Shown here: positions 7,572 through 57,543 of the stretch, piece after piece
Layout: each line of letters starts with the position of its first letter
Numbering within the stretch: position 1 is the first letter of the stretch
Source: a virus
Taxonomy: Duplodnaviria > Caudoviricetes
Virus record (IMG/VR): IMGVR_UViG_3300042539_001740
DNA length: 64,000 nucleotides
Strand: one strand, 5' to 3'
Notes under the pieces: generated by a model
Told to the model about the DNA's origin: nothing
The model's database searches: none
What the model saw: the letters and a program-made list of their open reading frames with translations, nothing else
Made by a program: the position numbers and the translations under genes

Positions 7572-8324
7572 TTATTCTTGCATCATTTTGTCAAGCATAC
7601 TAATATAAATATTTTTATATCGTTTTATACAAACCCTAATTTCTTTAGTTGATAAATTAGTCATTTCTCGAAGGGAAAGAAGAATCACATTTTTATTAAA
7701 TTTATTGTTTGAGTTACCAATAAAAATTGAGTCATAGTTTTCAAACAATTCCATAAGTGCTTGACCTAACTTAAATTCATTTTCTGATAAGTTTTTTTCT
7801 TTCAAAACTTTTTCTAGTTCAATTAAAAAACTCTGAATAATATTTTGAGAATCTAATGTGTCATTATCAATTGAGTATGATAAATTTTCATCATTTTCTA
7901 AATCTGAGGAGATATCCTCGTATGATATTTTTCTATTGGTTTCCTTAGCATCTTTAATTATTTGACCCATCAAATAATTTTTACAGATTGTACCAAAATA
8001 AGAATAAGCCTTCTTTTCCTTCGAGGGCTTAAACTTGTCTATTTTAGTCATTAGAAATGAATGTGTATCTATATGTAGTTCTTCGAAATCCATATCCTTT
8101 CGATATAATTTGTACCTACGAATAATTGATGAAATCATTTTATCAAGTGGAATTCGGAGGAATTCATTATAAATCTTGTTTTTTTCCTCCGATGTCTCCG
8201 CATTAAGATAATCGACTACAGCAACTTCTTCTTGTATATCGAAATAGTTTTTTTGTTTTGGTTTTCTTCCCTTTTTTTTAGAATCTAAAATAGTATCACC
8301 TGAAATGATATTTGTTTCGGTCAT
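7572..8324 (-). CDS. Phage RNA polymerase sigma-like factor (gp55-like)
   Basis: Region-2-like segment FLMTKIDKFKPSKEKKAYSYFGTICKNYL resembles sigma/gp55 'KF.P....AFxYF..I..N'. Confidence 0.6.
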   Translation of the reverse strand: MTETNIISGDTILDSKKKGRKPKQKNYFDIQEEVAVVDYLNAETSEEKNKIYNEFLRIPLDKMISSIIRRYKLYRKDMDFEELHIDTHSFLMTKIDKFKPSKEKKAYSYFGTICKNYLMGQIIKDAKETNRKISYEDISSDLENDENLSYSIDNDTLDSQNIIQSFLIELEKVLKEKNLSENEFKLGQALMELFENYDSIFIGNSNNKFNKNVILLSLREMTNLSTKEIRVCIKRYKNIYISMLDKMMQE

Positions 8325-9127
8325 TAAATTGTTTGTCCTTCATACTTTATTTTTCTATCACTAGTGAAGAAATATTCTTTTTTTGCACTCTCAATCCAAA
8401 ATTTAACTTCATCAGGTTGAAGTTGACTATCTCCATTTTTGTAGTTCCAAAATATAGAACCTGGTCTGAAATTAGTATGTTTGTAACCAATTTTGGGTAG
8501 TGACATAATTTTTAAACCATAATGTGAAGCCCTTAGTAAAAATTCATAACCAAATGTAAGTTTGATAGTTCCTTTGAATAAACCAGTACTTTCTAAAGCT
8601 GATTTTTTAATAACCATACCCGAAATTTGAAAGTTCTGATATTGTTGTAGAACTTCATTTGTCAATAAACCAATTTCACTTGAAATATTCAAAGCAAAGG
8701 TTGCCTCATTAGTAAATCCAACAAATTTTCCTTTTTCATCAGTATCAACAACGATTGGTAGGAATACGTCAACATCATTATAAACTGATGAATATTTTTC
8801 TACGTTGTCAAACCAAATTTTAGAATATTCATCATCAAATTCAAAAATAGAAATCCATTCAGAACTTGATTCTTGGATACCAAGGTTAACTTGTTCACAA
8901 AAGTTAGGTTCATAGTCCCACTTTACTTTTTTAATATTTAAATCACCAAAATCATAAGTATCAAGTACTTCTAATAATTTTGTTTCATCAGTGTGAACAA
9001 TAACTAATTCATTGATTTGAGTTTTTTGTTCTTTAAGTGATGTGATTGCTTTTACAAAGTATTCGTCAAAGTCAAAAGCCGAACCCGATTTTATTGGTAA
9101 TATTACTGATACATTAAATTTTTCCAT
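8324..9127 (-). CDS. Glycosyltransferase, GT-A fold (GT2-like)
   Basis: VSVILP N-terminus, NLGIQ, IFEFDD DxD-like motif. Confidence 0.7.
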   Translation of the reverse strand: MEKFNVSVILPIKSGSAFDFDEYFVKAITSLKEQKTQINELVIVHTDETKLLEVLDTYDFGDLNIKKVKWDYEPNFCEQVNLGIQESSSEWISIFEFDDEYSKIWFDNVEKYSSVYNDVDVFLPIVVDTDEKGKFVGFTNEATFALNISSEIGLLTNEVLQQYQNFQISGMVIKKSALESTGLFKGTIKLTFGYEFLLRASHYGLKIMSLPKIGYKHTNFRPGSIFWNYKNGDSQLQPDEVKFWIESAKKEYFFTSDRKIKYEGQTI

Positions 9128-9128
9128 A

Positions 9129-10187
9129 TTATTCTACTTCTTGTAATTTGTTTAGTTGTTCTTCAAAGGTTATGGCTCTTTTTTCCACGTATTCGTTAAA
9201 TAATTCTTTAACTTTTTTAGTAAAGTTTTCTTTGGTTGGTAAACTTTCAACTGTTTTTTCCATTTCAGAAATAATTTTTGGGTTGGTATTGTCTTCCAAC
9301 CAATTTTGGATGTAATCAGCCAAGAAATCAACAACTTGGGTTTTGTTATTTATCCACAAACCGTTGTCTTCACTCATCCATTCAGGTACTATATTAGGTA
9401 CTAAACCAATGACAGGAATATTAGTTTTCATACTTTCCAAAGGAAAAGTTCCATAAGAACTGGTTTCATCAACCCACACAGAAATGAAACAATTTTTTAG
9501 TTCTTCGGCAAATTGTTCAGTAGTCAAACCTCTCATGTCTTTGAAGGTCACCCATCTATATTGAGGGAATTTTAGATAAAAACTTTTGATTAGGTTTAAA
9601 GTGTCTCTTTGGTCTCTAGTGTGTACTGCAACAATCGGTTTGTTTGGTAATTTTTGTTTTGTAAAACTTTCTGAGATAAATGGTTCTAACACATCAAAAG
9701 AAACCCCTCTCATTGTGTTTTCCAAATATTCCTTAATCATATTTGATGTTGTAATACATTTGTAAAATCCTAATTGAGTCCAAGATTGACCTGGTTGTAA
9801 GGTTTCTAAAATGTGGTCATAAGCTTGGGTTAAAACAATTTTTCCACAAGGTAACTTAGTTATCTGTTCCATAACAAAACCATAAATTTCAGGTACAACT
9901 ATGAAGTCCTCAGGAGCTACAGATAGGTTTTGTCCTTCAATGAATGTGTGTGGAATTTTCATATATTCCTCACCTAACCAAGAACCAACACCATAGTAAT
10001 CATTTTTTTCATGTAACATAATAACATTAAATCCATCTTCCATCAATGTTAACCCCATATTATAAATGTAAGCTACTGATGCTTTTGCATTACCTTTAGT
10101 ATCTTGTACTAAAAGATAAATTTTCGACTTCTTGTCTTTTAAATTTTTAATTGATTGTTCTACTTTTTGTATTTGTTCAGAATTCAT
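9129..10187 (-). CDS. Putative glycosyltransferase, GT-B fold
   Basis: C-terminal 'SSYGTFPLESMKTNIPVIG' resembles the GT4 E-x7-E region. Confidence 0.55.
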   Translation of the reverse strand: MNSEQIQKVEQSIKNLKDKKSKIYLLVQDTKGNAKASVAYIYNMGLTLMEDGFNVIMLHEKNDYYGVGSWLGEEYMKIPHTFIEGQNLSVAPEDFIVVPEIYGFVMEQITKLPCGKIVLTQAYDHILETLQPGQSWTQLGFYKCITTSNMIKEYLENTMRGVSFDVLEPFISESFTKQKLPNKPIVAVHTRDQRDTLNLIKSFYLKFPQYRWVTFKDMRGLTTEQFAEELKNCFISVWVDETSSYGTFPLESMKTNIPVIGLVPNIVPEWMSEDNGLWINNKTQVVDFLADYIQNWLEDNTNPKIISEMEKTVESLPTKENFTKKVKELFNEYVEKRAITFEEQLNKLQEVE

Positions 10188-10458: not shown

Positions 10459-11105
10459 TATATTATTTGTTTGAGTATTGGTTCTAACTCTTTCAAACTT
10501 GTGATTGAGTCATATTTATTTATATCCTTATTATAATCAGTACTAAATTTGATTACCTTTTTGTCTTTTGGATGATTCAATAATAGGTTAGGATTTGCTG
10601 TAAGTAAAACATCAAATTCATCCCACAAAGAATTTATTGTGATATTAGAATAGAAGACAATCTTTTCCAATTCACACCCAAACTTAGATAAAAAGAAAAG
10701 AGTCGCTGGTTTAGATTTTCCAATTTCATCTGAAACCAAAAGAAAATCAACATTTTGTCTCAGATTATGATAAACATCATTTAAATCATAGAAAGTTGAC
10801 ATTTCTATTGAGGGAGCATGACCAAATAGTTCCATACAATATTCTTCATACATAAATGTATAATATTCCTCTTCATTTTGAAACGCAAAATGGTTCTTCA
10901 AATCCAAACTACTGACATCCGATAAAATTTTGTACTCAAATGGTTCTGAAACATTTTGGATTTCTGTATTACCTGATAAATCAATTGTATACGTTGGATT
11001 TAGGTACTCACTTTGTGGGGAATCAATTAAATGTTTTTCGTATAGTTGTTTAAATTTACCAATAGTATCTCTTAAAACCCCATTAATATCTATAGCTATC
11101 CTCAT
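10458..11105 (-). CDS. HAD-family 5'(3')-deoxyribonucleotidase-like protein
   Basis: MRIAIDINGVLRD HAD motif I; the second Asp is replaced by Asn. Confidence 0.6.
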   Translation of the reverse strand: MRIAIDINGVLRDTIGKFKQLYEKHLIDSPQSEYLNPTYTIDLSGNTEIQNVSEPFEYKILSDVSSLDLKNHFAFQNEEEYYTFMYEEYCMELFGHAPSIEMSTFYDLNDVYHNLRQNVDFLLVSDEIGKSKPATLFFLSKFGCELEKIVFYSNITINSLWDEFDVLLTANPNLLLNHPKDKKVIKFSTDYNKDINKYDSITSLKELEPILKQII

Positions 11106-11827
11106 TTATCTTCGTATCTTCTTAAGATTTTACCAATTAATGGATTTCTTACAACGTCTTGATTAGAGAATTCAAAAATACCCACATCATCAAGTTCTTT
11201 AAACTTTTTAATGGCATCATAAAGTCCTGTATGTGTTTTATCTTTGTACCTATCCGTTTGTTCAAGGTCACCACTTATGAAAAATTTACTATTGAAACCT
11301 ATCCTTGTCAAGAGTAATTTCATTTGATTTGGAGTCGAATTTTGAGCTTCTTCAAATATCAAGATTGAGTTGTCAATATTCATACCTCTCATATACGCCA
11401 AGGCAAAAACTTCGATGATATCGTTTTCTTTAAGTTTTTCTCTTGCTTCCTTCCCAATAATTTTGTTCATCAAATAATATGAAGGAAAAATATATGGGTC
11501 TAATTTTTCTTCTACGTTTCCAGGTAATGCACCTAATTTTTCTTCCGCTTCTACAGCTGGTCTTACGATAATTATTTTCTCATATGGTGACTGAGGGTCA
11601 GCTAATAAGTCAATTGCTGCCTTCATTGCTATATATGATTTACCAACACCTGCTGGTCCTGAACAAATTGTTATTTGATTTTTTTTAAGTAAATCATAAT
11701 AAAACTTTTGATTCTCAGTCAGGAATTTTTCTTTCGACTTTTTTTTAATAATCTCAGAAATTATTTCTTTCTTAGTTTTTTTTGTTTCAGTTTCCTGAGG
11801 TTGTGTTGGTTTTTTTCTTTGTGTCAT
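11102..11827 (-). CDS. phoH: PhoH-like ATPase
   Basis: GPAGVGKS Walker A, RPAVE, GALPG, YMRG, EEAQN, GDLEQ, VVRNPLI. Confidence 0.93.
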   Translation of the reverse strand: MTQRKKPTQPQETETKKTKKEIISEIIKKKSKEKFLTENQKFYYDLLKKNQITICSGPAGVGKSYIAMKAAIDLLADPQSPYEKIIIVRPAVEAEEKLGALPGNVEEKLDPYIFPSYYLMNKIIGKEAREKLKENDIIEVFALAYMRGMNIDNSILIFEEAQNSTPNQMKLLLTRIGFNSKFFISGDLEQTDRYKDKTHTGLYDAIKKFKELDDVGIFEFSNQDVVRNPLIGKILRRYEDK

Positions 11828-11842: not shown

Positions 11843-12607
11843 CTATAGGTAAGTAAAATTTTTACATTTTATTTCATTTGGATACCAACCTTTTTCGGGT
11901 TGATTATAGTTTAACCAAAATTTAGGTGCTATTGTTAATTCTTTTTTATTCAACCATGCCGCCCACCATGAAAATGTTGATGCTGATATTATACAATATT
12001 TTGAAAAAAATAGAACTTTAAAATCAGTTATGACATCATTAGATATTATCTCAATATTATCAAAATACGATTTGGATAATTCGACATCATCAGTCACAAT
12101 AACAAAAGATAAATTTTTATTGTGTTGTTTTATTTCGTTAATTGCTTTTTCATAATATTTTTTAGGAATTAACCAATTGTTCGTTCCTATTTTATTATCA
12201 CCTCCTCTGATGTGAATATAACAAAATTTGTCAATAGGATATTTAGATAATATTTCATTAGTTTTTTCACAACTTTCAATTTTGAACCATTCAGTTATTA
12301 AATTTTTATACTTAGAGTAATATTTTTCTGTTTGGAAATAACCATTTAAATTTGTAAAATCTTTTACCCTGAAAATATTTTCATCATAATTTTGTTCAAA
12401 ACTTTCATAATAGTTGTATTTGACAAAACCATCAGATTCTCCTAAATCAATATTGGGAAAACATTTTTTTAAATGTCCACTATATGGTATATAAAATTTG
12501 TAATTATTTTCCATTGCAACTATACGACAAATTGAATATTGGAACATATGGTTACCAAGAGCAATGTTTTCCTCAACAAAAACTTTATTTAAACCAACTG
12601 TAATCAT
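11843..12607 (-). CDS. Alpha-1,2-fucosyltransferase-like (GT11)
   Basis: LGNHMFQY, GYFQTEKY, HIRGGD, STFSWWAAWL. Confidence 0.85.
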   Translation of the reverse strand: MITVGLNKVFVEENIALGNHMFQYSICRIVAMENNYKFYIPYSGHLKKCFPNIDLGESDGFVKYNYYESFEQNYDENIFRVKDFTNLNGYFQTEKYYSKYKNLITEWFKIESCEKTNEILSKYPIDKFCYIHIRGGDNKIGTNNWLIPKKYYEKAINEIKQHNKNLSFVIVTDDVELSKSYFDNIEIISNDVITDFKVLFFSKYCIISASTFSWWAAWLNKKELTIAPKFWLNYNQPEKGWYPNEIKCKNFTYL

Positions 12608-12609
12608 TT

Positions 12610-13335
12610 TTAAAATTCTTTTAACATTTCTTTTATACTTGGGTACATAGTGAAATTTTGGGAATCCTCATTTATTTCTTCCTTAGCATCCATCAAAATT
12701 ATTCCCCTTGCTGCATCTTCAGGAGTCATATACATATGATAACCAAACATTTTTATATGTTCACTATTTGTGTAAGGTGTGGTCAAATCTCTACCATCAT
12801 AAGAGGAAAGTTTTAACCATTTGTAGGCTTGCTCGTCATTTGTTAGTATCATTCCACCTTTACCAATCGGAATTATCTTTTTAATTTGAAAAGATAAAAC
12901 TTGTAGTGCATCTCCACCAACAAACATATTTTTAGTGAATCTACCTGCCCCATCCCAAATTCTAGTATTTTTTAGTTGATAAATCCCTTTCCATTCTACA
13001 TCTTCAATTTCAAAATCTAAACCAGAATGTTTTATTTGCATAGGGACTGAAATATATGTCCTATCAGGTATTATTATTTTGTTTTTACCATCGAGTTCCC
13101 CAATGTGTTGTAGATACTTGAGACTTAAGAAAATACCATTGGAGCAACAATCTACACTCACAGCATATTTACAAGCAGAAAAGTCAGCTACTTTTTTCTC
13201 AAAAATATCGATTACTTCTCTTGGGTCACTCCATTCATAACCTAATTTTTTAATTAAATCCAATTCAGGTCTTTGTAGTTCTTTAGGTATCTTCCCCAAA
13301 GGCCAAACATTATACTTATATTTGTTTTCACTCAT
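12610..13335 (-). CDS. Short DegT/DnrJ/EryC1 PLP-dependent sugar aminotransferase
   Basis: AVSVDCCSNGIFL, SFQIKK..IGKGGMILTND. Confidence 0.8.
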   Translation of the reverse strand: MSENKYKYNVWPLGKIPKELQRPELDLIKKLGYEWSDPREVIDIFEKKVADFSACKYAVSVDCCSNGIFLSLKYLQHIGELDGKNKIIIPDRTYISVPMQIKHSGLDFEIEDVEWKGIYQLKNTRIWDGAGRFTKNMFVGGDALQVLSFQIKKIIPIGKGGMILTNDEQAYKWLKLSSYDGRDLTTPYTNSEHIKMFGYHMYMTPEDAARGIILMDAKEEINEDSQNFTMYPSIKEMLKEF

Positions 13336-13855
13336 TATTATATCCCATTTTTTTTGCGTTTTCTATTATTTTTGTAGGATTTATTTTTTTTACTAATTTA
13401 GCTGGATTACCCTTATAAACACCCCATTCTTCAGTATCTCCCATCAATAAACTACCGGCAGTTAACAAAACACCTTTTCTTAATATTGTTCCAGGTAAAA
13501 CAATTGCGTTAGTACCTATGTTTGAAAATTCCTCCATAATTACAGGTTTTGTTATTTGGTTACCTTTCAATTCTTTCGGGATTAGTACACCAAATAGTCC
13601 ACTTTCATCAAATCTGTCTGATGAACAAATTATCCTTACACCAGCCATAATATTATTAAATCCTTTTACAATGAACTCACTATTTATACCACCTATACAA
13701 GTGACATAGGGTGATATATGAATATAATTACCTAAGGTCAATGAAGTTGTACAATAGAATCCTTTATCAATTGCAATATGATTACCCATTTTCACAAGGT
13801 GAGGACGTTTTATTACAACCCCATCTTCTATTATAACATCTTGCCCTATTATCAT
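13328..13855 (-). CDS. Hexapeptide-repeat (LbH) acyltransferase; start revised to 13855
   Basis: IGQDV-type hexapeptide repeats, IGTNAIVLPG, GNPAK; ATGA overlap with the upstream stop. Confidence 0.8.
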   Translation of the reverse strand: MIIGQDVIIEDGVVIKRPHLVKMGNHIAIDKGFYCTTSLTLGNYIHISPYVTCIGGINSEFIVKGFNNIMAGVRIICSSDRFDESGLFGVLIPKELKGNQITKPVIMEEFSNIGTNAIVLPGTILRKGVLLTAGSLLMGDTEEWGVYKGNPAKLVKKINPTKIIENAKKMGYNNE

Positions 13856-14364
13856 TTCCAACCTGTTAATTGTAATGTATATCGCATATCTTGTCCAATA
13901 TTTGCCGCCATATGTTTTGTATTTCCATACCATGCCACAAAAGTACCTGCTTTATAGTTAAAAAAAGGTTGACCATCAACTTCAAAATAGTGTCCACTTT
14001 TCCAATCCTCCAAAAAGATTAAAACTCTATGGATTTGATTTAATTCCAAATTGAATTTTTTTCTATACACATTATAGTGGTCACTATGTGTGGGTAATAT
14101 AACCCCTGTTTCCATACGATAATAACAAACACCAATGTCTTTTAGACCAAGATTTTCTTCTACATATTTTACAAACTTATCTGTCCAAATTGGATGGTTC
14201 TCGCCAAATGGACACATCATGCCTGAAAATAACTCAACATCTTGTTTATATCCTAAATTACGCCAATTTTCGATATCACTTTGGTTGTTAAAAATTTCTC
14301 GTTTATAATTTAAATTTTTAAATTCGTCATCCCAAAATTTTTCTATTTTACCTTGACTCCACAT
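13852..14364 (-). CDS. 2OG-Fe(II) oxygenase-like protein
   Basis: HxD (THSD), distal His (TKH) and Arg (DMR) on a jelly-roll pattern. Confidence 0.7.
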   Translation of the reverse strand: MWSQGKIEKFWDDEFKNLNYKREIFNNQSDIENWRNLGYKQDVELFSGMMCPFGENHPIWTDKFVKYVEENLGLKDIGVCYYRMETGVILPTHSDHYNVYRKKFNLELNQIHRVLIFLEDWKSGHYFEVDGQPFFNYKAGTFVAWYGNTKHMAANIGQDMRYTLQLTGWK

Positions 14365-14378
14365 ATTTTTATAATTTT

Positions 14379-15620
14379 TTAAGAAATTCCGATTTTTATT
14401 ATTTCGACTTCATTTTGTTCTTTCATAAATCTCCATGGGTCAATAACTATTGAACCTGATGGAAACTGATAATCCAAAAAAGCATCGTGATTCGTTCCTA
14501 TGAAAAATATTGATTTTTTATTGATTGGTGGTTCTTCTGAATCAATCCAAGGGTCAAACATTTCAACGATTATATTTTTTTCATCTAAAATATTCTTCAA
14601 AAGAATTGCTGTACTACCAACAATCAAGTTTGTTTCCTTTTTGAAAGTTTTTCCCAATATTACTATTGGTAAATTATGTTGATTTCTTTTTTCAATAAGT
14701 AAATCAGCTAACCATTCTGTTTGTTTTTCTCTACATTCCATCAAATTACTATACCAGTCAAAACTCAGATTTTCTTTTTGTGCTAACCAAGAAAGAGCTA
14801 TGTTGTCTCTTGGATGGCAACCACCACCATCCCCCATACCACCTAAAAGGTATTTTGTACTTATTAATCTTTGGTTGGCCATAAATAGACCTTTCATTAC
14901 ATTGTCACAATTTATGTTGTTTAATTTGTGTGATAACTCCATAATTGTGTTAGCCAAACAAATTTTCATAGTGATGTACGTATTATAACTTACTTTTATC
15001 ATTTCAGCTTCCTCTATAGTACATTTATAAATTGGTTTATTATGTAATGTTGAATAAAAGTTTGTTACTACATTGTAAGCATTTTCATCATCAACACCAA
15101 ACAAAACAAATTCAGGGTTCATAAAATCATTTATAGTTGTTCCCATAGCAATAAAAAATGGGTTGTAACATAATTTAAGTTTATCACATAATAATGGTTT
15201 TATTTGATTTCTAATCGTTCCTGGTAAAACTGTTGAAATAATTACAACTATTTTTTCGTTTGGTTGATTGTCTATTTCCTTGGAAAGGTTTTTCATACCC
15301 TCAATCAAAAAAGAATAGTCAAAATCCACTCTTTCTTCAGGAATTCTGGTAACTCCCTCATATTTTTCATTATGTGGGGTTTGAATTGGTACAAATATAA
15401 TATCTGAATTATTTACTACTTGAGAGATATCAGACCATATAATACTATGAGTATCCAAAAGTTCTTGGGCGCCCTCCTCTCTATAAGGTAATTTTTTTTC
15501 ATCAAGAATTTTTTTAACTTTTTTATCTATATCAAAACCATAAATTTTATGTCCTTTTTTTTCGATAGCTAAAGCACAAGGTAATCCTAACTTACCCAAA
15601 CCTAAAAAACCTATATTCAT
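14379..15620 (-). CDS. ugd: UDP-glucose/GDP-mannose dehydrogenase family protein
   Basis: GLGKLGL Rossmann motif, YNPFF, EMIKVSYN, GGGCHPRD catalytic Cys. Confidence 0.9.
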   Translation of the reverse strand: MNIGFLGLGKLGLPCALAIEKKGHKIYGFDIDKKVKKILDEKKLPYREEGAQELLDTHSIIWSDISQVVNNSDIIFVPIQTPHNEKYEGVTRIPEERVDFDYSFLIEGMKNLSKEIDNQPNEKIVVIISTVLPGTIRNQIKPLLCDKLKLCYNPFFIAMGTTINDFMNPEFVLFGVDDENAYNVVTNFYSTLHNKPIYKCTIEEAEMIKVSYNTYITMKICLANTIMELSHKLNNINCDNVMKGLFMANQRLISTKYLLGGMGDGGGCHPRDNIALSWLAQKENLSFDWYSNLMECREKQTEWLADLLIEKRNQHNLPIVILGKTFKKETNLIVGSTAILLKNILDEKNIIVEMFDPWIDSEEPPINKKSIFFIGTNHDAFLDYQFPSGSIVIDPWRFMKEQNEVEIIKIGIS

Positions 15621-45289: not shown

Positions 45290-45301
45290 AAATATAAAAA
45301 T

Positions 45302-45721: not shown

Positions 45722-45732
45722 AAAAATTAATT

Positions 45733-45906: not shown

Positions 45907-45916
45907 ATAATAATTT

Positions 45917-46816: not shown

Positions 46817-46817
46817 T

Positions 46818-47708: not shown

Positions 47709-47712
47709 TAAT

Positions 47713-48633
47713 ATGATAGATAATTTTAATTTACCTAATAATGATAAGAATGTTCAATCATTCTATGGGATAGGTTCGGCTGTTTGGCAAACTTGGCAAA
47801 AACCGAATGGTTGTAAGTTTATGCAAATGATTGTCATCGGTGGAGGTGGAGGAGGTGGTGCGGGTGCTACAAGTATTGCTGGTAGTGCTAGGTCAGGTGG
47901 TGCTGGTGGTGGTGCTTCGGCAATAAGTCGAGCTTTTGGTACACTTTCAACTATTCCTGATACACTTTATATTTTAGTTGGTATGGGGGGTACTGGTGGG
48001 TTACCTACGGCAGGAGCTGGAGGTAATGGTACTGTAGGTACTTTATCGTATGTTAGTGTACAACCAAATACAACAACATCAAATATAATTTTAGCAAGTG
48101 GAGCTGCCGCAGCAGGGGCAGGTAATGGTGGAGCTGTCGGTAGTTCTAATGCTACCGCAGGTAGTGCTGGTACAGTATTTCTTCAGACCGCAGGATTTCT
48201 TAGTTATAATTTTTTGGTATCTTTGATAGCTGGACAATTAGGGGGAAGTGGAGGTAACCAAAATCAATCAGGTACTGCAGTATCTTTGACTAATATCGTT
48301 TCAGGTGGTGCAGGTGGAGCTGGTGTATCAACAACTTCTCGTGTTGGTGCGAATGTAACAGGTTCAGGATTTGTCTCAACAATAAACGGAGGTAATCCAA
48401 CCAACCCATCTGAAGCTGATAGCGGATTCTCATCATATAATGAGCAATTAATCAATATGCCATATAATTTGTTTTTCACAGGTGGTGCTGGAGGATACGC
48501 TAATAATACTACCGCTGGAGGTATTGGAGGAAATGGTGCGTATGGTTCAGGTGGTGGAGGTGGTGGTGCTGGAACTACTGGAGGAAGAGGTGGAAATGGA
48601 GGGGATGGTTTAGTTATAATAACTTGTTGGTAA
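47713..48633 (+). CDS. Glycine-rich protein, paralogue 3
   Basis: WQTWQKPNGCKF..IGGGGGG ... GGNGGDGLVIITCW. Confidence 0.8.
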   Translation: MIDNFNLPNNDKNVQSFYGIGSAVWQTWQKPNGCKFMQMIVIGGGGGGGAGATSIAGSARSGGAGGGASAISRAFGTLSTIPDTLYILVGMGGTGGLPTAGAGGNGTVGTLSYVSVQPNTTTSNIILASGAAAAGAGNGGAVGSSNATAGSAGTVFLQTAGFLSYNFLVSLIAGQLGGSGGNQNQSGTAVSLTNIVSGGAGGAGVSTTSRVGANVTGSGFVSTINGGNPTNPSEADSGFSSYNEQLINMPYNLFFTGGAGGYANNTTAGGIGGNGAYGSGGGGGGAGTTGGRGGNGGDGLVIITCW

Positions 48634-48645
48634 TATTTATCCTAT

Positions 48646-49899: not shown

Positions 49900-52800
49900 T
49901 GAGTTTTCCATATAAAAATCCAATAAGTCCTAATCAATTATTGGGACAACAAAGTTTAGAAAGAACAAAAACATTTGGGACTAGTTACTCAACTTTGTCC
50001 ACTGGTGGTTATATGGAAGTATATTCTTTAGACCAACTATATTACACAATCCCGCCATCCACATTCGGACCAATTGAGTTTAGTGGAAATAGTATTCCAA
50101 TCACATTTTCAAAAGGTAGTGGTACAACATTTTCCTATGATACATTAACTTTACAACCTGACAATATTTCTTCGGGTAGAAGAAAACAAGGTATGTTGGT
50201 TTATGTAAAAGAAGTTGACCAAGTTTATCAATATTCAATTAATAACTACGAAACCCTTTGGAACAATGCAACTGGTTCTACTGGTACAACAATAATATCA
50301 GACTTTGGTACGACCATAAGGGCTAACTCACCTGAAAATATAACTTTCATTAATAGTTGGACAGCAAATACTATTGATGGGGTTGGTGGTGTAACACGAG
50401 CTAATGCTGTATGGAAAAAATATCACGGAACTAATTTAGCTATAACTGGTGGTTCTTATAATTCTATCACGAACACATTGACATTAACAAACATAACTGG
50501 GGGCACTCAAAATATCACTGGTTTTGGAGGTGGAGGTGGTGGGGGTGCTACAATCACTGGTGGTACTTTTGACAAGAACACTGAGACATTAACTTTAAGT
50601 TCTTCAGGTGGTAGTATATTCATTACAGGTTTTACTGATGTTTATACAACTGGTGGTACTTTTGATAATGGTGCAAAATCTTTAGAGTTATATGATAATA
50701 GTGGAAATACTATTACTATAACTGGATTTACATCTGTAACAGGTTTAACAGGTGCTGGAGCTTATGGAAGTTTTTCAGATACAACTAACCAACCAGTTAG
50801 TGGTGCTAATATAGAAACAGTTTGGACATATAACACAACCGAGATTTCCAATGGTATATATATATCAGGTGGTTCAAAAATTAGGGTATCACAATATGGA
50901 ATTTATAGTATAGGATATTCGGGTCAAATTGAAAAAACACAAGGTGGTACTGCAACCGATGTTACAATATGGGCAAAAATAAATGGAAATAATGTGGACA
51001 GAAGTTCATCAACAACTACATTAGTTTCTAACTCCGCATATATACTCCCATTTGTTTCGTACATATTTGAACTATATCCTAATGACTATTTGGAATTTTA
51101 TTTTTCAGCTCCAAGTCAATATGTACAACTAACAACATTATCAGGATTAACTTCACCAACAAGACCAGATTCTCCTTCAGTAATTATTGTTGCACAATCT
51201 GTGTTAGGAACTACCGCAACATTTACTGGTAATACTTCAGCAACTTGTATTACTGACTTGTATGTTGAAAATCTATATGGTTGTTCACCAATTAATGTTA
51301 ATGATTTATTAATTGGAAATTCAGGAATAACAACATCAAGTTTAACAGGTACAACTATTAGAAATAACTTTATTGTTGATAGTGGGAACACAATCACGAT
51401 AAAAAACTCAAATAGACAATTGATGGATACTTCAGGTGTCGTGTCTGTTGATTGGTCAAATAGAACTATTAACGATAGTGGAAACAACATATCAATAGAT
51501 TGGGAAAATAGAAAAGCAAAAGATACTTTAGGTAATAATTCTATCGATTGGGAGAGTAAAGGTTTAATCGATTCTACAAATACAAACTCAGTCGGCTGGG
51601 ATTCAAGAAGAGCATATGATAGTTTGGGTGGAACTAGTTTAGATTGGGAATCTAAGGATTTATATGATTCATCTTCAGTAATTTCGTTAAACTATAACTC
51701 AAGAACTTTAACTGACTCAGGGTCAAATATACTTTTGGATTGGCAAAATGGTATTGCTGATTTAAGTAGTTTATATTCAACAAATATTTCTGCAAATACA
51801 ATATCAGCAACAACTTATCAGAATCTACCAACAGAAGTTTTTGTAACTGGTGCAACTTATTCTAATAATACAATTACTTTCACCAATAATACTGGAGGTA
51901 CTTTCAATGTTTTATTTAACACCTTTACTGGTGCTACGATTAATGGTAATTTAAGTGTAACTGGTTCAACTTCTTCATCTTCATTTAGTGGAAGTAGTGA
52001 TACAATAACTGGCAGTAAAGGTAGTGTAATCACAAGTGGTAGTTCTACAACCGCGTTTATTAATGTTTCAGGTAGTAATACAGTTGGGGGTACTGGATAT
52101 ACTGACTTCATAAGAGTTACAAATACCGCAGCAGGAGCTACAAATATAAACAAAACAATTCGTGTTAACAATAATGGTCGTTTAGAGTTTTTGAATAGTG
52201 CATATACCTTCCAAACATTAAACTTGTCAGATAATGGAATTCTTAGTGTTGGTGGGGATAATTTTGCAGGGACATCATCAAGTGATGGCGTATCAAATTA
52301 CTTACAATTTGGTAATAATGCCTCCCAAATCTATGATGATGGTAATTTTCACATTCATAGTAGGTCTGCTGGGCAATCAATGTGGATTAACACTAATGGT
52401 GGACAATTAAATCTATTAACTCAAGCACCACTTGCTGGTGCCAGTATAGGTTCAGGTATTGCTATTGCAACTACATCATTGAATGGTTATGTAACTATCA
52501 ACACTGGTAGAACTGTTACTACGGCCGCAGCTTATGGATTTTTGACCACGGGTGGTGCTGGTACTTACCCAGGTGGTTCTCAGTCAGTATCCATTTCATT
52601 ATATGCAAACAATCGTATTTGGGGTCAAGAAATAGATGCGTTCTCAGATGAGAGAATGAAGGACATACAAGGTGAAATAACTTTAGAAGAAGGAGTTAAA
52701 TTGGTGAATAATTTAATACCAATTAAATACACTTGGAAAGAAGGTGATGATAAAGATATAAAAGCTGGTTACTCGGCACAACAAGTGTCAAAGGCGGGAT

Positions 52801-52997
52801 TTGACCACCTAATCAGTTTAATACCAAAAGAAGGTTTAGAAGAAACAATAGATGAGGATGGATTTTTAAGTCCAAAAGATACACAATTTTCGATGAATTA
52901 TGACCAAGTAACACCATATCACGGAATTGTTATTAAACATTTATTGGAAGAAATTGAAAACCTTAAAAAAGAGATTGAGAGTTTAAAGAATAAATAA
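49899..52997 (+). CDS. Long tail fibre/spike with a C-terminal peptidase S74 intramolecular chaperone
   Basis: FSDERMKDI...IPIKYTWK...GYSAQQV...MNYDQV followed by a coiled coil. Confidence 0.85.
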   Translation: MSFPYKNPISPNQLLGQQSLERTKTFGTSYSTLSTGGYMEVYSLDQLYYTIPPSTFGPIEFSGNSIPITFSKGSGTTFSYDTLTLQPDNISSGRRKQGMLVYVKEVDQVYQYSINNYETLWNNATGSTGTTIISDFGTTIRANSPENITFINSWTANTIDGVGGVTRANAVWKKYHGTNLAITGGSYNSITNTLTLTNITGGTQNITGFGGGGGGGATITGGTFDKNTETLTLSSSGGSIFITGFTDVYTTGGTFDNGAKSLELYDNSGNTITITGFTSVTGLTGAGAYGSFSDTTNQPVSGANIETVWTYNTTEISNGIYISGGSKIRVSQYGIYSIGYSGQIEKTQGGTATDVTIWAKINGNNVDRSSSTTTLVSNSAYILPFVSYIFELYPNDYLEFYFSAPSQYVQLTTLSGLTSPTRPDSPSVIIVAQSVLGTTATFTGNTSATCITDLYVENLYGCSPINVNDLLIGNSGITTSSLTGTTIRNNFIVDSGNTITIKNSNRQLMDTSGVVSVDWSNRTINDSGNNISIDWENRKAKDTLGNNSIDWESKGLIDSTNTNSVGWDSRRAYDSLGGTSLDWESKDLYDSSSVISLNYNSRTLTDSGSNILLDWQNGIADLSSLYSTNISANTISATTYQNLPTEVFVTGATYSNNTITFTNNTGGTFNVLFNTFTGATINGNLSVTGSTSSSSFSGSSDTITGSKGSVITSGSSTTAFINVSGSNTVGGTGYTDFIRVTNTAAGATNINKTIRVNNNGRLEFLNSAYTFQTLNLSDNGILSVGGDNFAGTSSSDGVSNYLQFGNNASQIYDDGNFHIHSRSAGQSMWINTNGGQLNLLTQAPLAGASIGSGIAIATTSLNGYVTINTGRTVTTAAAYGFLTTGGAGTYPGGSQSVSISLYANNRIWGQEIDAFSDERMKDIQGEITLEEGVKLVNNLIPIKYTWKEGDDKDIKAGYSAQQVSKAGFDHLISLIPKEGLEETIDEDGFLSPKDTQFSMNYDQVTPYHGIVIKHLLEEIENLKKEIESLKNK
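51393..51752 (+). repeat. About 7.5 copies of a 16-aa repeat (xSxDWxxRxLxDSxGx)
   Basis: VSVDWSNRTINDSGNN / ISIDWENRKAKDTLGN / NSIDWESKGLIDSTNT / NSVGWDSRRAYDSLGG ... Confidence 0.85.
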
Positions 52998-53052
52998 TTT
53001 AATTAAATCTATTCTTTCCATCCAATTTTTATATTTTTTGTATAAAAATTCA

Positions 53053-54303
53053 ATGTCAACTATATTCGTACAAATAGCGGCCTTTAGAGACCCCCAACTT
53101 AATCCCACCTTACAAGATATGATTTTCAAAGCCAAGTATCCTGAGAACTTGAGGGTTGGTATTTGTAATCAATATAATGAAGAAGATAATTTCAATTTAG
53201 ATGAATACAGAAATGATGATAGATTTAGAATCATTGATGTGTTAGATAAGGAATCATTGGGTGTATGTTGGGCAAGACATAGTGTGCAACAATTATATTC
53301 AGGTGAAACATATACATTACAGATTGATTCTCATATGAGATTTGAACAAGATTGGGATGTTACCTTAATTGATATGATTAATAGTTTACAGTTAAGTGGT
53401 TACAGTAAACCATTGTTAACTGGTTATGTATCTTCATTTGACCCAGATAATGACCCTGAAGGTAGAGTGAATGAACCTTGGAGAATGACCTTTGATAGAT
53501 TTATACCTGAAGGTGCTGTATTCTTTTTACCTGAAGTTATACCAGGATGGCAAGAACTAACAAGTCCAATTCCCGCAAGATTTTATTCAGCTCATTTCTG
53601 TTTTACATTAGGTGAGTTTAGTAATGAAGTTCAACATGACCCTGAATACTATTTCCACGGAGAAGAAATTAGTGTTGGTGTTAGAGCATTCACTCACGGA
53701 TATGATTTATTCCATCCACATAGAGTTGTTATTTGGCACGAGTATACCAGAAAAGGTAGAACGAAACAATGGGATGTTGATAAGGTTTGGTTTAAGAAGA
53801 ATGAAAAATCACACGCAAGAAATAGAAGATTGTTTGGTATGGATGGTGAAATATTTAACCCTGAAGAGTTTGGTAAATACGGATTTGGTACTGAAAGAAC
53901 TTTAGAAGATTATGAGAAATACGCAGGTATTAAGTTTAATAAAAGAGGAGTACAAAAATATACAACAGATAAATACTATCCACCAAATCCATATAATTTT
54001 GAGACAGAGGAAGATTATTTAAATAGTTTTGCGAGCGTGTTCAAACATTGTATTGATGTTGGATTTACATCTGTACCTGAAAAAGATTATGATTTTTGGG
54101 TTGTAGCATTCCACGACTCAAAAGATGAAACGATGTTTAGACAAGATGCTGACATTAATGAAATAAACAGAGTAATGCAAGACCCTGATGGATATTGTAA
54201 GATATGGAGAGAGTTTAATACGATTCAAAAACCAGCATATTGGGTTGTATGGCCACATTCAAAATCAAAAGGGTGGTGTGATAGATTAACTGGTAATTTG
54301 TAA
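53053..54303 (+). CDS. GT60-like polypeptide/hydroxyproline N-acetylglucosaminyltransferase; start revised to 53053
   Basis: IFVQIAAFRDP, GVCWAR, LQIDSHMRF..DWD, YFHGEEI, RAFTHGYD. Confidence 0.75.
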   Translation: MSTIFVQIAAFRDPQLNPTLQDMIFKAKYPENLRVGICNQYNEEDNFNLDEYRNDDRFRIIDVLDKESLGVCWARHSVQQLYSGETYTLQIDSHMRFEQDWDVTLIDMINSLQLSGYSKPLLTGYVSSFDPDNDPEGRVNEPWRMTFDRFIPEGAVFFLPEVIPGWQELTSPIPARFYSAHFCFTLGEFSNEVQHDPEYYFHGEEISVGVRAFTHGYDLFHPHRVVIWHEYTRKGRTKQWDVDKVWFKKNEKSHARNRRLFGMDGEIFNPEEFGKYGFGTERTLEDYEKYAGIKFNKRGVQKYTTDKYYPPNPYNFETEEDYLNSFASVFKHCIDVGFTSVPEKDYDFWVVAFHDSKDETMFRQDADINEINRVMQDPDGYCKIWREFNTIQKPAYWVVWPHSKSKGWCDRLTGNL

Positions 54304-54304: not shown

Positions 54305-54997
54305 ATGTTTGATATTCGTAAGGTAAAAAAAATAGTAATAAACTTAGAAAGGAGACCCGATAGATTAAAGTTATTCAAAGACGAAATGGATTTTATTGGT
54401 TGGGAGTATGATATTTTTAAGGCGATTGATTATGGTAGTTATTTAGGTTGTGCTTACTCTCACTTAAAAATATTAGAGGACTTCTTAGCTACTGATGAGA
54501 AATACATTATGATATTTGAGGACGATTGTTATTTTATGCCTTATGTAAAAGAACAATTGGAAAAATCACTATTTGAGTTGAGTGAAGTAGATTGGGATTA
54601 TTTTCATTTAGGACCTAGTATAAATTGTCCTGTTAATAATTTCTCCAACCATTTACTAAATCTTAGTGAATTACCAAAACAAGAAGAACACCATAGGGGA
54701 ATCTATAATACTGTTTGTTATATTATTAATAGGAAGTTTGCTCAGATGGCTATAATATGGAATGAAAAAAATCAAAAAGCTATTGACCAATATTATTATG
54801 AAGACATTTTTAAAGAACTAAAGTGTTTCGCCCCATCTTTACCTTTAGTAACTCAAAGAGTGGGGTTCTCTGATATCAATAAAACCACCGATAACAATCA
54901 TTATTTAATAACTTACAACTGGAACTTGTATACTAAGAACAAATTAGATATACAATATTACGATATAAATTATTGTGAAAACCTGAAATACTCATAA
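54305..54997 (+). CDS. GT25 family glycosyltransferase
   Basis: VINLERRPDRL, GCAYSH, IFEDD. Confidence 0.85.
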   Translation: MFDIRKVKKIVINLERRPDRLKLFKDEMDFIGWEYDIFKAIDYGSYLGCAYSHLKILEDFLATDEKYIMIFEDDCYFMPYVKEQLEKSLFELSEVDWDYFHLGPSINCPVNNFSNHLLNLSELPKQEEHHRGIYNTVCYIINRKFAQMAIIWNEKNQKAIDQYYYEDIFKELKCFAPSLPLVTQRVGFSDINKTTDNNHYLITYNWNLYTKNKLDIQYYDINYCENLKYS

Positions 54998-54998
54998 T

Positions 54999-55877
54999 AT
55001 GAAAACATTATTCCTAACTTGTATATACAATAACTTATTTGGTACTGAGTTTGGTGGTAGACCTAGTAGAGAAGAACATTATAAATATAGCTTGTTATCA
55101 CTATTGAGAATGACAAGTGCCGATTTTATTTGTTATACAAATCCAAGTGATTTGTCAAATCTGGAACATTTTTTTCATAATCAAAATGGAATATCAAAAG
55201 ATAAATTAAAATTCATTCCTTTCAAACTAAAGGATACAAAACATCATCATATTTTTTCGAAGTACAAAGACATTGATACGATAAAGAATGGTGATAGATG
55301 TTTTGAAATTCAGTACAATAAGTTTTTTTGGTTTTTCAATGAAACGTTAAGTTACGACAACTATTATTGGATAGATGCAGGTCTAAGTCATTGTGGTATT
55401 ATTCCCGACAAGTATTTGGTGAACAATAACACTTATCAAAGATATTTTAATTCTTACTTTTTTGATGACACCTTTTTAGATAGGTTAATTGAAAAATCGA
55501 AGGACAAGATTTTAGTAATTGGTAAATCTAATACTGGCTCAAATTTTTGGTCGAATACTTTACCCAATGAATATTATATAGAATACGATAGTTCGTATCA
55601 TATAATTGGTGGTTTATTTGGTGGAACAAAAAAAGTTATGAAAAAATTTGTTGAGGAGTTTGAAAGGATTTTCTTGTGGGTTACTGAAAAAGAAAAAAAA
55701 CTATATTCTGAGGAACAAATTATGACCACAATCTTTATGAATAATAAAGAATGGTTTAATTTATTTTCATTCGATGTTTGGTGGCACGAAAACAATTTAA
55801 CACCTGATTGTCCATCAAATTATTTAACAATTAACAAAAGTTTTTATAAAAGTTTGGAGGATATAAAAGGTGAATAA
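54999..55877 (+). CDS. HtrL/YibB-like putative glycosyltransferase
   Basis: YYWIDAG, IIGGLFGG, SEEQIM; paralogous to the N-half of the next gene. Confidence 0.6.
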   Translation: MKTLFLTCIYNNLFGTEFGGRPSREEHYKYSLLSLLRMTSADFICYTNPSDLSNLEHFFHNQNGISKDKLKFIPFKLKDTKHHHIFSKYKDIDTIKNGDRCFEIQYNKFFWFFNETLSYDNYYWIDAGLSHCGIIPDKYLVNNNTYQRYFNSYFFDDTFLDRLIEKSKDKILVIGKSNTGSNFWSNTLPNEYYIEYDSSYHIIGGLFGGTKKVMKKFVEEFERIFLWVTEKEKKLYSEEQIMTTIFMNNKEWFNLFSFDVWWHENNLTPDCPSNYLTINKSFYKSLEDIKGE

Positions 55878-57543
55878 TTTAACATTAGTAACAGGATTAT
55901 GGGATATAGGTAGAGACCAATTAACTGAAGGTTGGTCAAGAACATACCAACACTATTTAGATAAGTTTGAAAGTTTACTCAAATTAGATGTAAACTTAAT
56001 AATATTTGGTGATACCGACTTACAAAGATTTGTAGAACAAAGAAGAGATTCACATAACACACAATTCATAATAAGACCAAAAGATTGGTTCATTAATAAT
56101 GAGTTCTATCCAAAGATACAAAAGATTAGGCAAGACCCAAGTTGGTACAATCAAGTTGGTTGGTTAAAAGATTCAACCCAAGCAAAACTTGAAATGTATA
56201 ATCCTTTGGTTATGTCCAAAATGTTCTTACTAAATGATGCAAGAATATTGGATAAGTTTAACTCAGATTATATGTTTTGGATTGATGCTGGTATTACAAA
56301 CACAATTCATCCTGGTTATTTTACCCACGATAAAGTATTAGACAAATTACCCAAATATGTAGATAGATTCCATTTCGTTTGTTTCCCTTATGAAACAAGT
56401 ACAGAGATTCACGGATTTGAAATAAATGCGATGAATAATTACACCAAAACAAAAACAAACAGAGTTGCAAGGGGTGGTTTCTTTGGTGGAAAAAAAGAAA
56501 GAATCAATGATATGAACTCATTGTATTATATGTTACTTAATGATTCATTATCAAAAGGATTTATGGGCACTGAAGAATCCATATTCACAATAATGACTTA
56601 TCTATATCCCCAACATATCAACTATTCAATGATAGAGGGTAATGGATTGATGGGTAAGTTTTTTGAGGATTTGAAGAACGACACATTGGAAGTATTAAAT
56701 GAAACACCTGAACCAATCAAATATCAAAGTAATGATATATCTAAGGTGGGTTTATATGTTATCACATTCAACTCACCAAAACAATTTGAGACCTTAATAA
56801 AATCAATGTTAGAATATGATAGGGATTTTATAACCAAACCAAGAAAGTTTTTGTTGGATAACTCAACAGATTTATCAACAACACCAAGATATAAAGAATT
56901 GTGTGAACAATATGGATTTGAACATATAAAGAAAGATAATATTGGCATAATGGGGGGTAGGATATTTGTTGCCGAACATTTTAATGATACCGATTTAGAT
57001 TTCTACTGGTTTTGGGAAGATGATATGTTTTTCTATCCAAAGAATGAAACTTGTAAAAATGGATTTAATAGATATGTAATCAACTTATATCAAAAAAGTT
57101 TAGAGATTATTCAAAAAGAAAAGTTCGATTTTCTTAAACTAAATTATACGGAGTTTTATGGTGACAATGGAACACAGTGGGCGTGGTACAATGTACCCCA
57201 AGATTTTAGACAAAAACATTGGCCAAACAATCCAAAACTTCCACAGATGGGATTAGACCCAAATGCACCTAAAACAAAGTTTGAATTCATCAGTACTCAT
57301 AAAGGTGTACCATATGTAGGTGGAGAAATCTACCTATCAAATTGGCCAATCGTTTTAAGTAAAGAAGGTAATTATAAATGTTATTTGGAAACAAAATGGG
57401 CTCACCCATTCGAACAGACCCTCATGTCGTATTGTTACCAAGAAACAATAAAAGGGAAAATTAAACCTGGTTTATTGTTGTTAACCCCCACCGAGCACAA
57501 TAGGTTCGACCATTACGATTCAAAATTGAGAAAAGAAAATTAA
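55870..57543 (+). CDS. HtrL/YibB-like domain fused to a GT-A domain
   Basis: LVTGLWDIGR, FWIDAG, GGFFGG, TEE; C-half LLDNS, FWEDD. Confidence 0.65.
   Translation: MNNLTLVTGLWDIGRDQLTEGWSRTYQHYLDKFESLLKLDVNLIIFGDTDLQRFVEQRRDSHNTQFIIRPKDWFINNEFYPKIQKIRQDPSWYNQVGWLKDSTQAKLEMYNPLVMSKMFLLNDARILDKFNSDYMFWIDAGITNTIHPGYFTHDKVLDKLPKYVDRFHFVCFPYETSTEIHGFEINAMNNYTKTKTNRVARGGFFGGKKERINDMNSLYYMLLNDSLSKGFMGTEESIFTIMTYLYPQHINYSMIEGNGLMGKFFEDLKNDTLEVLNETPEPIKYQSNDISKVGLYVITFNSPKQFETLIKSMLEYDRDFITKPRKFLLDNSTDLSTTPRYKELCEQYGFEHIKKDNIGIMGGRIFVAEHFNDTDLDFYWFWEDDMFFYPKNETCKNGFNRYVINLYQKSLEIIQKEKFDFLKLNYTEFYGDNGTQWAWYNVPQDFRQKHWPNNPKLPQMGLDPNAPKTKFEFISTHKGVPYVGGEIYLSNWPIVLSKEGNYKCYLETKWAHPFEQTLMSYCYQETIKGKIKPGLLLLTPTEHNRFDHYDSKLRKEN

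Follow-up and report, generated by a model that had tools for sequence, protein, structure and literature searches.

What do the many glycan genes gathered around the tail-fibre genes of a freshwater phage act upon? The question is raised by a window of 64,000 nucleotides (the whole stretch of DNA analysed here; 64 genes in our map), which is the reverse strand of bases 89,525–153,524 in the 194,498-bp IMG/VR virus record IMGVR_UViG_3300042539_001740. Within this window, a glycosyltransferase (GT) gene, g54, directly follows a fibre operon that encodes proteins with Thr-Pro tracts, and it is accompanied by the partner genes g56 and g57 and by two variable sets of glycan genes, designated islands A and B. 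The reading that we favour, with slightly more than even confidence, is a soluble cytoplasmic mucin-type O-glycosylation of the phage's own fibre/adhesin proteins, for which g54 is the proposed initiator:

g54, 53038–54303, plus strand: GT60-family polypeptide-type glycosyltransferase (PF11397), proposed initiator

The g54 protein matched PF11397 with 239.3 bits (cut-off 21; E 1e-70) over profile positions 1–45 and 92–351 of 352, and its AlphaFold model, built with 42 homologues, had a pLDDT of 95.8. A fold search among Swiss-Prot models identified Dictyostelium Gnt1 as the best match (E 1.5e-25), and the next 29 were all polypeptide GalNAc-transferases (ppGalNAc-Ts; family GT27). In the corresponding search of the PDB, the first 37 chains were all mucin-type ppGalNAc-Ts, many of them solved with mucin peptides; a sequence search of g54 against PDB chains gave no match. 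The DxH motif D97-S98-H99 was at least 90% conserved across 43 homologues, and having DxH where DxD would stand is a feature peculiar to GT27 and GT60 (PMC7185993). A further distinction is that GT60 has no C-terminal ricin-type lectin domain, unlike GT27 (PMC8724618). No ricin-type match was obtained in g54, though it possesses a separate, extra beta-rich C-terminal domain at approximately residues 330–421, where Gnt1 does not align.

The characterised GT60 enzymes all act on polypeptides, transferring alpha-GlcNAc onto Thr of mucin-like domains or onto hydroxyproline (Hyp) of Skp1; the Trypanosoma cruzi mucin-Thr enzyme uses the acceptor KPPTTTTTTTTKPP and requires Mn2+, and enzymes of this family can be soluble and cytosolic (PMC3769586, PMC8724618). 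With Gnt1, the Golgi enzyme Gnt2 and TcOGNT-2, g54 has in common the Pfam family, the GT-A fold and the DxH motif. Gnt1 is soluble, and so is g54 as judged from the absence of any predicted transmembrane (TM) helix; in addition, a Thr-/Pro-rich, acceptor-like sequence adjoins g54. The differences from Gnt1 are an identity of 24%, the extra C-terminal beta domain, the encoding by a phage and the setting in a prokaryotic cytoplasm. Skp1-type Hyp glycosylation uses a prolyl 4-hydroxylase, whereas neither prolyl hydroxylase family searched for (PF13640, PF03171) was matched in the 194-kb record, which is approximately 66% complete according to CheckV; Thr/Ser is therefore a likelier acceptor of g54 than Hyp. 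A complex prediction of g54 with residues 150–240 of g52 and Mn scored 0.00 with the partner disordered, which is evidence neither way.

The initial annotation had noticed Thr-Pro tracts in four proteins of the fibre operon. This was borne out, as the window contains four proteins with such tracts and no more, all of them encoded by the plus-strand operon at 37352–52997:

g42, 37352–39502, plus strand: first gene of the operon; Cys-rich product with a (TP)n tract at approximately residues 355–375; conserved in relatives

g43, 39520–40485, plus strand: 321 amino acids (aa); Thr-Pro tract of approximately 135 residues flanked by small N- and C-terminal domains

g46, 42467–43249, plus strand: 260 aa; N-terminal Thr-Pro tract

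g52, 48646–49899, plus strand: 417 aa; two Thr-Pro tracts, one of approximately 75 residues

In the best 30-residue windows of these proteins, Thr and Pro make up 60–80% of the residues, compared with approximately 6% Thr and 3–4% Pro in the proteome. Because ACN and CCN codons are disfavoured at the 31% GC content of the record, the tracts are selected rather than a product of base composition. The g43 protein as a whole consists of 24% Thr and 16% Pro, and its tract is retained in all homologues from relatives. That the region is a fibre operon is indicated at the sequence level by g53, by the repeats common to several products and by the Gly_rich_2 paralogues, which are encoded by the remaining listed genes:

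g44, 40499–41629, plus strand: fibre-repeat protein; the repeat motif is common to g44, g47 and g53

g47, 43265–45289, plus strand: fibre-repeat protein of 674 aa

g49, g50 and g51, 45917–48633, plus strand: three paralogues with a glycine-rich domain (Gly_rich_2, PF21722), raising the local GC content to 43%

g53, 49899–52997, plus strand: tail fibre containing a C1q-like domain and ending in an S74 intramolecular chaperone

The chaperone of g53 was identified as Peptidase_S74 (PF13884), and the tblastn matches of this protein were the tail fibre of phage P60 and C1q-like phage proteins. The g42 protein showed a weak match to the C-terminus of one PHROG virion structural protein; apart from this, the PHROGs search gave almost no matches for fibre-operon proteins, and neither megablast of the fibre and GT region nor tblastn of g42 found cultured-phage matches. 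All genes from g42 to g57 share the same orientation. The gap at the g53/g54 junction is no more than 40 nt, and stops and starts overlap within the g54–g57 module. A scan of 36.8–56.7 kb for sigma-70 promoters and terminators yielded no more than the shuffle level, and a scan for Bacteroidota-type TAnnTTTG promoters was uninformative.

Downstream of the module lies a further gene with Thr-Pro-containing orthologues:

g60, 58428–59180, plus strand: N-terminal module only, 250 aa

In close relatives, the orthologues of g60 are 640–1,230 aa long and possess long Thr-Pro linkers and a C-terminal BspA-like leucine-rich repeat array (compared were window positions 58428–59180, L014:17369–21064 and L016:16683–19340). 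By this comparison, the adhesin part has been lost or swapped in the phage under study.

A second block of large Thr- or Thr-Pro-rich proteins (653, 731 and 806 aa) was observed outside the window at G000:C1:20840–31597 (L004). Enclosed by this block are a PHROG virion structural protein and a further protein of 325 aa. The nearest language-model clusters to the latter are viral, with 10–16% of the members matching PF23452 (HPAT, hydroxyproline O-arabinosyltransferase); the 325-aa protein is a possible second peptide-directed GT and is offered as a lead only.

To examine how tightly g54 is associated with Thr-Pro proteins, related loci were retrieved from metagenomes. A total of 7,159 of the 8,000 scored candidate homologues of g54 were above threshold, and 4,702 cluster representatives were matched. 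The relatives are freshwater phages of 270–320 kb; the loci retrieved were all close relatives, and among them none was found that retains the fibre module without g54. Across 160 IMG/VR loci a fixed order was observed: g41 (on the minus strand), g42, a variable fibre cassette, g54, zero to eight genes, g57, g60 and PolB. Among 95 distinct alleles, in which the position of g54–g57 directly after the fibre operon, and hence beside its predicted structural targets, was maintained, a Thr-Pro-rich open reading frame (ORF) occupied the position immediately upstream of g54 in 42% and the second position upstream in 33%, compared with 5–12% at other positions. The gene most commonly found directly upstream of g54 in relatives is a relative of g52. 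The initial annotation had proposed co-occurrence of the GT60-like gene and the Thr-Pro proteins as a check, and it was found: in 49 of the 59 fully covered loci, a Thr-Pro-rich ORF is among the three genes before g54 or the two genes after g57 (odds ratio 8.9, Fisher p 2.5e-29, counted on related genomes and thus not on independent ones).

The partners of g54, and the gene that separates them from it here, are the following:

g55, 54305–54997, plus strand: GT25 (PF01755); member of the variable island B

g56, 54999–55877, plus strand: unnamed conserved protein of the module; putative GT

g57, 55870–57543, plus strand: two-domain GT, with an HtrL-like N-terminal domain (PF09612) and a second GT-A domain with an EDD motif

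The g56 protein matched nothing in Pfam or NCBIfam. The model of g57 (pLDDT 92) contains two GT-A domains, at residues 1–279 and 290–557, of which the N-terminal one superposes on Escherichia coli HtrL (TM-score 0.71 by hit). After HtrL, the whole-chain fold matches that span both domains were LH3, mimivirus R699, LARGE1, K4CP, PmHS2 and Dictyostelium PgtA; the TM-scores to such two-GT-A enzymes are low (approximately 0.3), and at the sequence level the only family match is HtrL_YibB. PgtA is a bifunctional enzyme that acts after Gnt1 on Skp1 (PMC3769586, PMC8724618). The pairing of g54 as initiator with the two-domain g57 mirrors this pathway, and an initiator with a two-headed extender is therefore a known design. 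A remote possibility is that g57, whose model is built like LARGE1, chondroitin polymerase and heparosan synthase, synthesises a polymer of disaccharide repeats, which would make the fibres proteoglycan-like.

The g54–g57 interval, designated island B, holds zero to eight variable genes across related loci. When pooled, these encode 242 distinct proteins in 68 homology families, including GT25 (the commonest), GT10, GT34, GT7, a PLOD-type GT, RXYLT1-like proteins, FkbM and other methyltransferases, and a carbamoyltransferase. All of these families build or tailor glycans, and none of them serves export.

The module also recurs in cultured phages. Homologues of g54 with 45–50% identity were found in the Xanthomonas jumbo phage XacN1, in Xoo-sp13 and in the Stenotrophomonas phages RAS14 and CM1 (in CM1, the g54 homologue alone was checked). 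In XacN1, Xoo-sp13 and RAS14, the g54, g56 and g57 homologues occur in the same order beside baseplate wedge genes, with identities of approximately 28% for g56 (27–29% in XacN1 and RAS14, at the same position) and 40–44% for g57, and the module adjoins a protein of 3,100–3,300 aa that has TP or PS tracts close to the C-terminus. The hosts of the four cultured phages are Gammaproteobacteria, whereas that of the studied lineage probably belongs to the Bacteroidota; the XacN1-type module has a carbamoyltransferase where the studied phage has GT25, and it comes with no large island A. Purified XacN1 virions showed at least two glycoprotein bands stained by the Schiff (periodic acid–Schiff, PAS) reaction, and phage GTs were suggested to be their makers (PMC5852040). 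In the same report, the stained bands and the GT family were left unassigned, and ORF334, the g54 homologue, was not tied to GT60, to ORF330 (the g57 homologue) or to Thr-Pro tracts.

Among bacteria, adjacent homologues of g54 and g57 were found in Gemmatimonadota, Lewinellaceae, Cytophagaceae and others. Thr-Pro-rich ORFs made up 14 of 433 within four genes of the bacterial GT60 gene and 1 of 205 farther away. In Ralstonia, Achromobacter, Paraherbaspirillum and Paraburkholderia, the GT60 homologue is located inside a type VI secretion system (T6SS) cluster, with TssF upstream. Three genes from the Burkholderiales GT60 homologue is a VgrG spike (E 2.5e-173 to solved VgrG-family chains) with a (TP)n or T-rich C-terminal tail of approximately 100 residues, as observed in L214 (Ralstonia sp. 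25C), L224, L194, L240 and other Burkholderiales loci. The placement of GT60 beside a Thr-Pro-tailed VgrG suggests that other contractile injection systems may be subject to this chemistry as well; our literature search found no paper on glycosylation of VgrG by a GT60-type enzyme.

Two other arrangements of the family were observed in passing. Giant proteins of 1,600–2,460 aa (P0122, P0123, P0124, P0131 and P0134) contain up to four separate GT60-like stretches. On a metagenomic contig (L171:14–3117), two PF11397 genes flank genes for a PqqD-like protein (recognition element of ribosomally synthesised and post-translationally modified peptides) and a ScmC-family protein, which hints that some bacterial GT60 members may act on small peptides.

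None of the GTs has a predicted TM helix, and no protein with four or more predicted helices was detected in the 194-kb record, nor was there any polytopic membrane protein in it that could represent a ligase, polymerase or GtrA/GtrB-type protein. In four relatives that are 93–100% complete, neither Bac_transf nor a Wzx-type flippase (Polysacc_synt) was found. Use of host machinery remains compatible with the missing membrane and export parts. Taken together, the GT60/Thr-Pro link at the heart of the initial annotation's claim, that the phage builds glycans on its own fibres, is supported because of family and fold, conserved gene order, recurrence in cultured phages and the lack of membrane/export machinery; the share that the claim gave to the first glycan cluster is conjecture and is taken up below.

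In the pathway that we propose, g54 would place a first HexNAc (N-acetylhexosamine) onto Thr/Ser of proteins such as g42, g43, g46 and g52, within their (T-P)n and (x-T-P-T)n linkers, most likely as alpha-GlcNAc from the donor UDP-GlcNAc. The conserved partners g57 and g56 would build a core on this first sugar, and variable genes, namely the GT25 gene g55 and, less certainly, the enzymes of island A, would add strain-specific outer sugars. The outcome would be stiff, protease-resistant, glycan-coated stalks that bear the distal binding domains.

Several observations weigh against this pathway or limit it. It is known here from genes, synteny and predicted structures only; the acceptor, the sugars, the linkage, the part of island A and the biological role are what we infer from them. 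The co-occurrence counts come from related, phylogenetically non-independent genomes, and the Thr-Pro linkers may be a lineage habit in modular fibre proteins that merely adjoin a conserved GT pair; some g42 orthologues do lack the tract though g54 is present. Hypervariable GT cassettes beside receptor-binding genes also typify receptor-modifying systems of the serotype-conversion kind. Island A lies on the other strand, apart from the fibre operon, and is missing in some relatives that keep g54. The stained bands of XacN1 have no protein assignment, and this phage has a second GT. In bacteria, the enrichment of Thr-Pro-rich ORFs near GT60 (14/433 versus 1/205) is modest, and the T6SS context is equally compatible with the GT60 homologue being a secreted effector.

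The main rival is remodelling of the host surface, in which soluble GTs at the inner membrane face would act on undecaprenyl-linked intermediates of lipopolysaccharide (LPS), capsule or S-layer, altering the receptor for superinfection exclusion or for release of progeny from debris, and the Thr-Pro tracts would be plain flexible linkers. We consider this unlikely, while giving it real weight. Most O-antigen and capsule GTs are likewise soluble or peripheral, and LPS and capsule loci typically contain GT11, GT25, GT2, HtrL, RfbH-like and NeuD/PglB-type enzymes. Surface-polysaccharide loci show the kind of hypervariability seen in both islands, whose location near receptor-binding genes would be natural if the fibres and the GTs followed a common host glycan. 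The cyanophage P-SSM2 carries large 'LPS gene' clusters of unknown role, which may be counted on the same side. The core enzyme, however, belongs to a family in which all characterised members glycosylate polypeptides, and its nearest folds are ppGalNAc-Ts. Moreover, no initiating phosphoglycosyltransferase, flippase, polymerase, ligase or Gtr-type protein was found in the record and the four near-complete relatives, the frequency of a Thr-Pro-rich gene directly before g54 is far above chance, and XacN1, which has the same module, is a phage with reported virion glycoproteins.

Next in standing is a model of split function, for which the other glycan genes of the window need to be described. 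These belong to cluster 1, which includes core genes of the lineage (g9–g12) and the strain-specific island A:

g9, 8324–9127, minus strand: GT2-family (PF00535, 25.3 bits, above cut-off); core gene of the lineage, adjoining PhoH in nearly all of approximately 60 related loci

g10, 9129–10187, minus strand: weak GT1/GT4-like match (PF00534, E 1.3e-3, below cut-off); core gene, in all related loci

g13, 11102–11827, minus strand: PhoH (PF02562, E 3e-64), a non-glycan gene and the conserved left boundary of island A

Island A, 11843–30046, minus strand: strain-specific, 17 genes, annotated with Pfam and NCBIfam; its members, all on the minus strand, are listed below

g14, g23 and g28: GT11 (Pfam)

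g15: short DegT-like protein

g16, 13328–13933: NeuD/PglB/VioB-type (hexapeptide) acetyltransferase

g18: NDP-sugar dehydrogenase (nucleoside diphosphate, NDP)

g19, 15620–17356: 578 aa; unknown N-terminal domain of 330 aa followed by NAD synthase (NadE, PP-loop)

g20: weak RXYLT1-like match

g21: 854-aa fusion of a short-chain dehydrogenase/reductase (SDR), a zinc ribbon and an NDP-hexose C-methyltransferase

g22: GT17 (Pfam)

g24 and g25: DUF3431 and DUF5672, respectively; weak or putative GTs

g26: RmlD-like reductase domain and GT2

g27: RfbH-like PLP/PMP (pyridoxal/pyridoxamine phosphate) enzyme, a dehydrase or aminotransferase (E 3e-109)

g29: weak GT2

g30: two GT2 domains

Pfam thus upheld the family assignments of the initial annotation for GT11 (g14, g23 and g28), GT17 (g22), GT25 (g55) and GT60 (g54), while no Exostosin match was found for the GT47-like type that it had also named. 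The earlier tally of more than 25 glycan genes was overstated, with approximately 17 firm and 7 weak ones in our count: 10 genes have GT domains above the Pfam cut-offs (12 domains), six to seven encode sugar-nucleotide enzymes, and six are weak or putative GTs (g10, g20, g24, g25, g29 and g56). Nor do two glycan clusters directly flank the fibre operon, as had been stated. Cluster 1 has PhoH inside it and ends at 30046, and approximately 7 kb of unrelated minus-strand genes (a split dUTPase, an exonuclease, homing endonucleases and WYL) follow before the operon begins.

Because the RfbH-like, acetyltransferase, dehydrogenase and C-methyltransferase families were confirmed, the production of deoxy, amino-acetylated, uronic and C-methyl-branched sugars is plausible at the family level. 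In our proposed pathway, the contribution of island A would consist of its three GT11 enzymes, GT17, the GT2s and the enzymes for such uronic, amino-acetylated, deoxy and C-methyl sugars. That island A feeds the g54 pathway at all is a tentative proposal, to which we give a little less than an even chance.

According to the split-function model, g54, g56 and g57 put a short conserved glycan on phage proteins, and island A makes sugars for another target, such as the host envelope, DNA or a small molecule. We regard it as distinctly improbable. In its favour, island A lies on the opposite strand and 7 kb from the fibre operon, is bounded by PhoH and dUTPase with non-glycan genes nearby, and is lacking in three related loci: the PhoH–dUTPase interval of relatives contains from zero to more than 13 mostly unrelated genes (with a g30-like gene usually retained on the dUTPase side) and is empty in L324, L328 and L333, of which L324 and L333 show g42 and g54 within the locus. 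Against it, the families represented in islands A and B are alike in kind (GT11/GT10-type fucosyltransferases, GT2, methyltransferases and DegT). Since island A has no initiating or exporting enzyme of its own, it needs some acceptor pathway, and for this the record offers only g54 as a candidate initiator, along with the core GTs g9 and g10.

It is also conceivable, if quite improbable, that the glycans themselves, as chains started by g54 and lengthened by g57 on mucin-like stalks, are the host-binding ligands, mimicking polysaccharides that are captured by lectin-like or SusC/D-type receptors of the probable Bacteroidota host, so that host range is set by swapping the GT cassettes of islands A and B and not the fibre proteins. 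Least probable of all is an effector role of g54 against host proteins, in takeover or counter-defence, or else the addition of the glycans to phage DNA: the closest relative with a characterised activity, Gnt1, does act on a cytosolic regulatory protein, the Burkholderiales homologue does lie in T6SS clusters, where effectors are common, and the ThyA-family gene of complete relatives could in principle be a hydroxymethylase, but the position at the end of a late fibre operon, the two-domain extender and up to eight tailoring genes exceed the needs of regulatory monoglycosylation, no DNA glycosyltransferase-type families were found, the fold searches gave no likeness to the T4 alpha- or beta-glucosyltransferases, and the ThyA-family gene, being absent from the 194-kb record and present in complete relatives, does not discriminate.

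Two small observations were made on island A genes. The g19 gene directly follows that for the NDP-sugar dehydrogenase and could serve either ordinary NAD metabolism or as a uronamide-sugar amidotransferase; an NAD synthetase gene is likewise found near the GT60 module of Xoo-sp13. As called, g16 (13328–13933) and g17 (13852–14364), both on the minus strand, overlap by 82 nt; either the true start of g16 probably lies further downstream, or translation of the two genes is coupled.

How does fibre glycosylation by this phage, if correct, compare with systems already described? Chlorovirus PBCV-1 glycosylates its capsid, and mimivirus its fibril, with virus-encoded soluble GTs and nucleotide-sugar enzymes of aminotransferase, acetyltransferase and dehydratase types. 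Mimivirus R699 was among the best fold matches of g57. These are viruses of eukaryotes with other initiating chemistry, and to our knowledge the logic of GT60 and Thr-Pro tracts has not been described for either. Mycobacteriophages, as summarised in PMC12619734 from Freeman et al. (2023), use phage GTs to glycosylate their own structural proteins in the cytoplasm; in that summary, the glycans are placed at the C-termini of capsid and tail-tube subunits by one or two GTs. The studied phage differs in that its candidate acceptors are mucin-like fibre linkers, its proposed initiator is of family GT60 and its cassettes are hypervariable. In serotype-converting prophages (GtrABC, O-antigen acetylases and polymerases), phage GTs vary with host-range genes as they do here; these systems need integral membrane proteins and lysogeny, whereas none were found in the studied record and the four relatives.

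Few cases of virion self-glycosylation by phage enzymes are known. Here, the initiator comes from a family that starts mucin-type O-glycans in protists and is located beside mucin-like Thr-Pro fibre linkers, the glycan genes of two cassettes turn over as fast as O-antigen loci, and the g54 module belongs to the core of a freshwater phage lineage that is very abundant. If our proposal is true, strain-level diversity of the phage surface would have a second, non-protein layer that is ignored by sequence-based prediction of host range, a mucin-type pathway would exist in the prokaryotic cytoplasm, and the prokaryotic and viral reservoir of GT60 would far exceed the protist one. The proposal is directly testable, as the cultured phages XacN1, Xoo-sp13, RAS14 and CM1 carry g54 homologues and virion glycoproteins of XacN1 have already been stained.

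The record as a whole contains the gene set of a tailed phage, including a gp6-like baseplate wedge, a PHROG virion structural protein, class I ribonucleotide reductase, DnaB helicase, an SF2 helicase, PolB and 15 tRNAs. Its near-complete relatives are 274–322 kb, and one of the four encodes DnaK; neither DnaK nor GlnA was found in the 194-kb, incomplete record. The closest g54 homologues in cellular assemblies, with 62–68% identity, were from metagenome-assembled genomes (MAGs) of Bacteroidota (Saprospiraceae, Lewinellaceae, Cytophagaceae and Chitinophagia), some contigs of which may be mis-binned phage. The 'moraphages' are aquatic jumbo phages of up to 307 kb with predicted Bacteroidota hosts, four core glycosyltransferase orthogroups and, in some, DnaK (PMC12619734); virion glycosylation is named there as just one among several possible roles of their GTs. 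The studied lineage resembles them in its core GTs (g9, g10, g54 and g57), the genome size of its relatives and the occurrence of DnaK. Compared by these genome traits alone, the lineage and its Bacteroidota-type homologues are compatible with membership of the moraphages, short of proof.

A last observation concerns the dUTPase next to island A, which is spread over three ORFs at window positions 30043–31930 on the minus strand. The first (31253–31930) combines the N-terminal part of dUTPase with a HINT N-terminal half, the second (30326–31219) encodes a 297-aa DUF1064-like putative endonuclease, and the third (30043–30345) combines an intein C-terminal splicing motif with the C-terminal part of dUTPase; the arrangement resembles an intein split in two, its halves separated by a free-standing homing endonuclease. 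Further homing-endonuclease-like genes were observed at window positions 33851–34615 on the minus strand (NUMOD3 and REase_MTES_1575) and at G000:C1:77921–79477 (518 aa, HNH type), which suggests that selfish elements move through this genome frequently.

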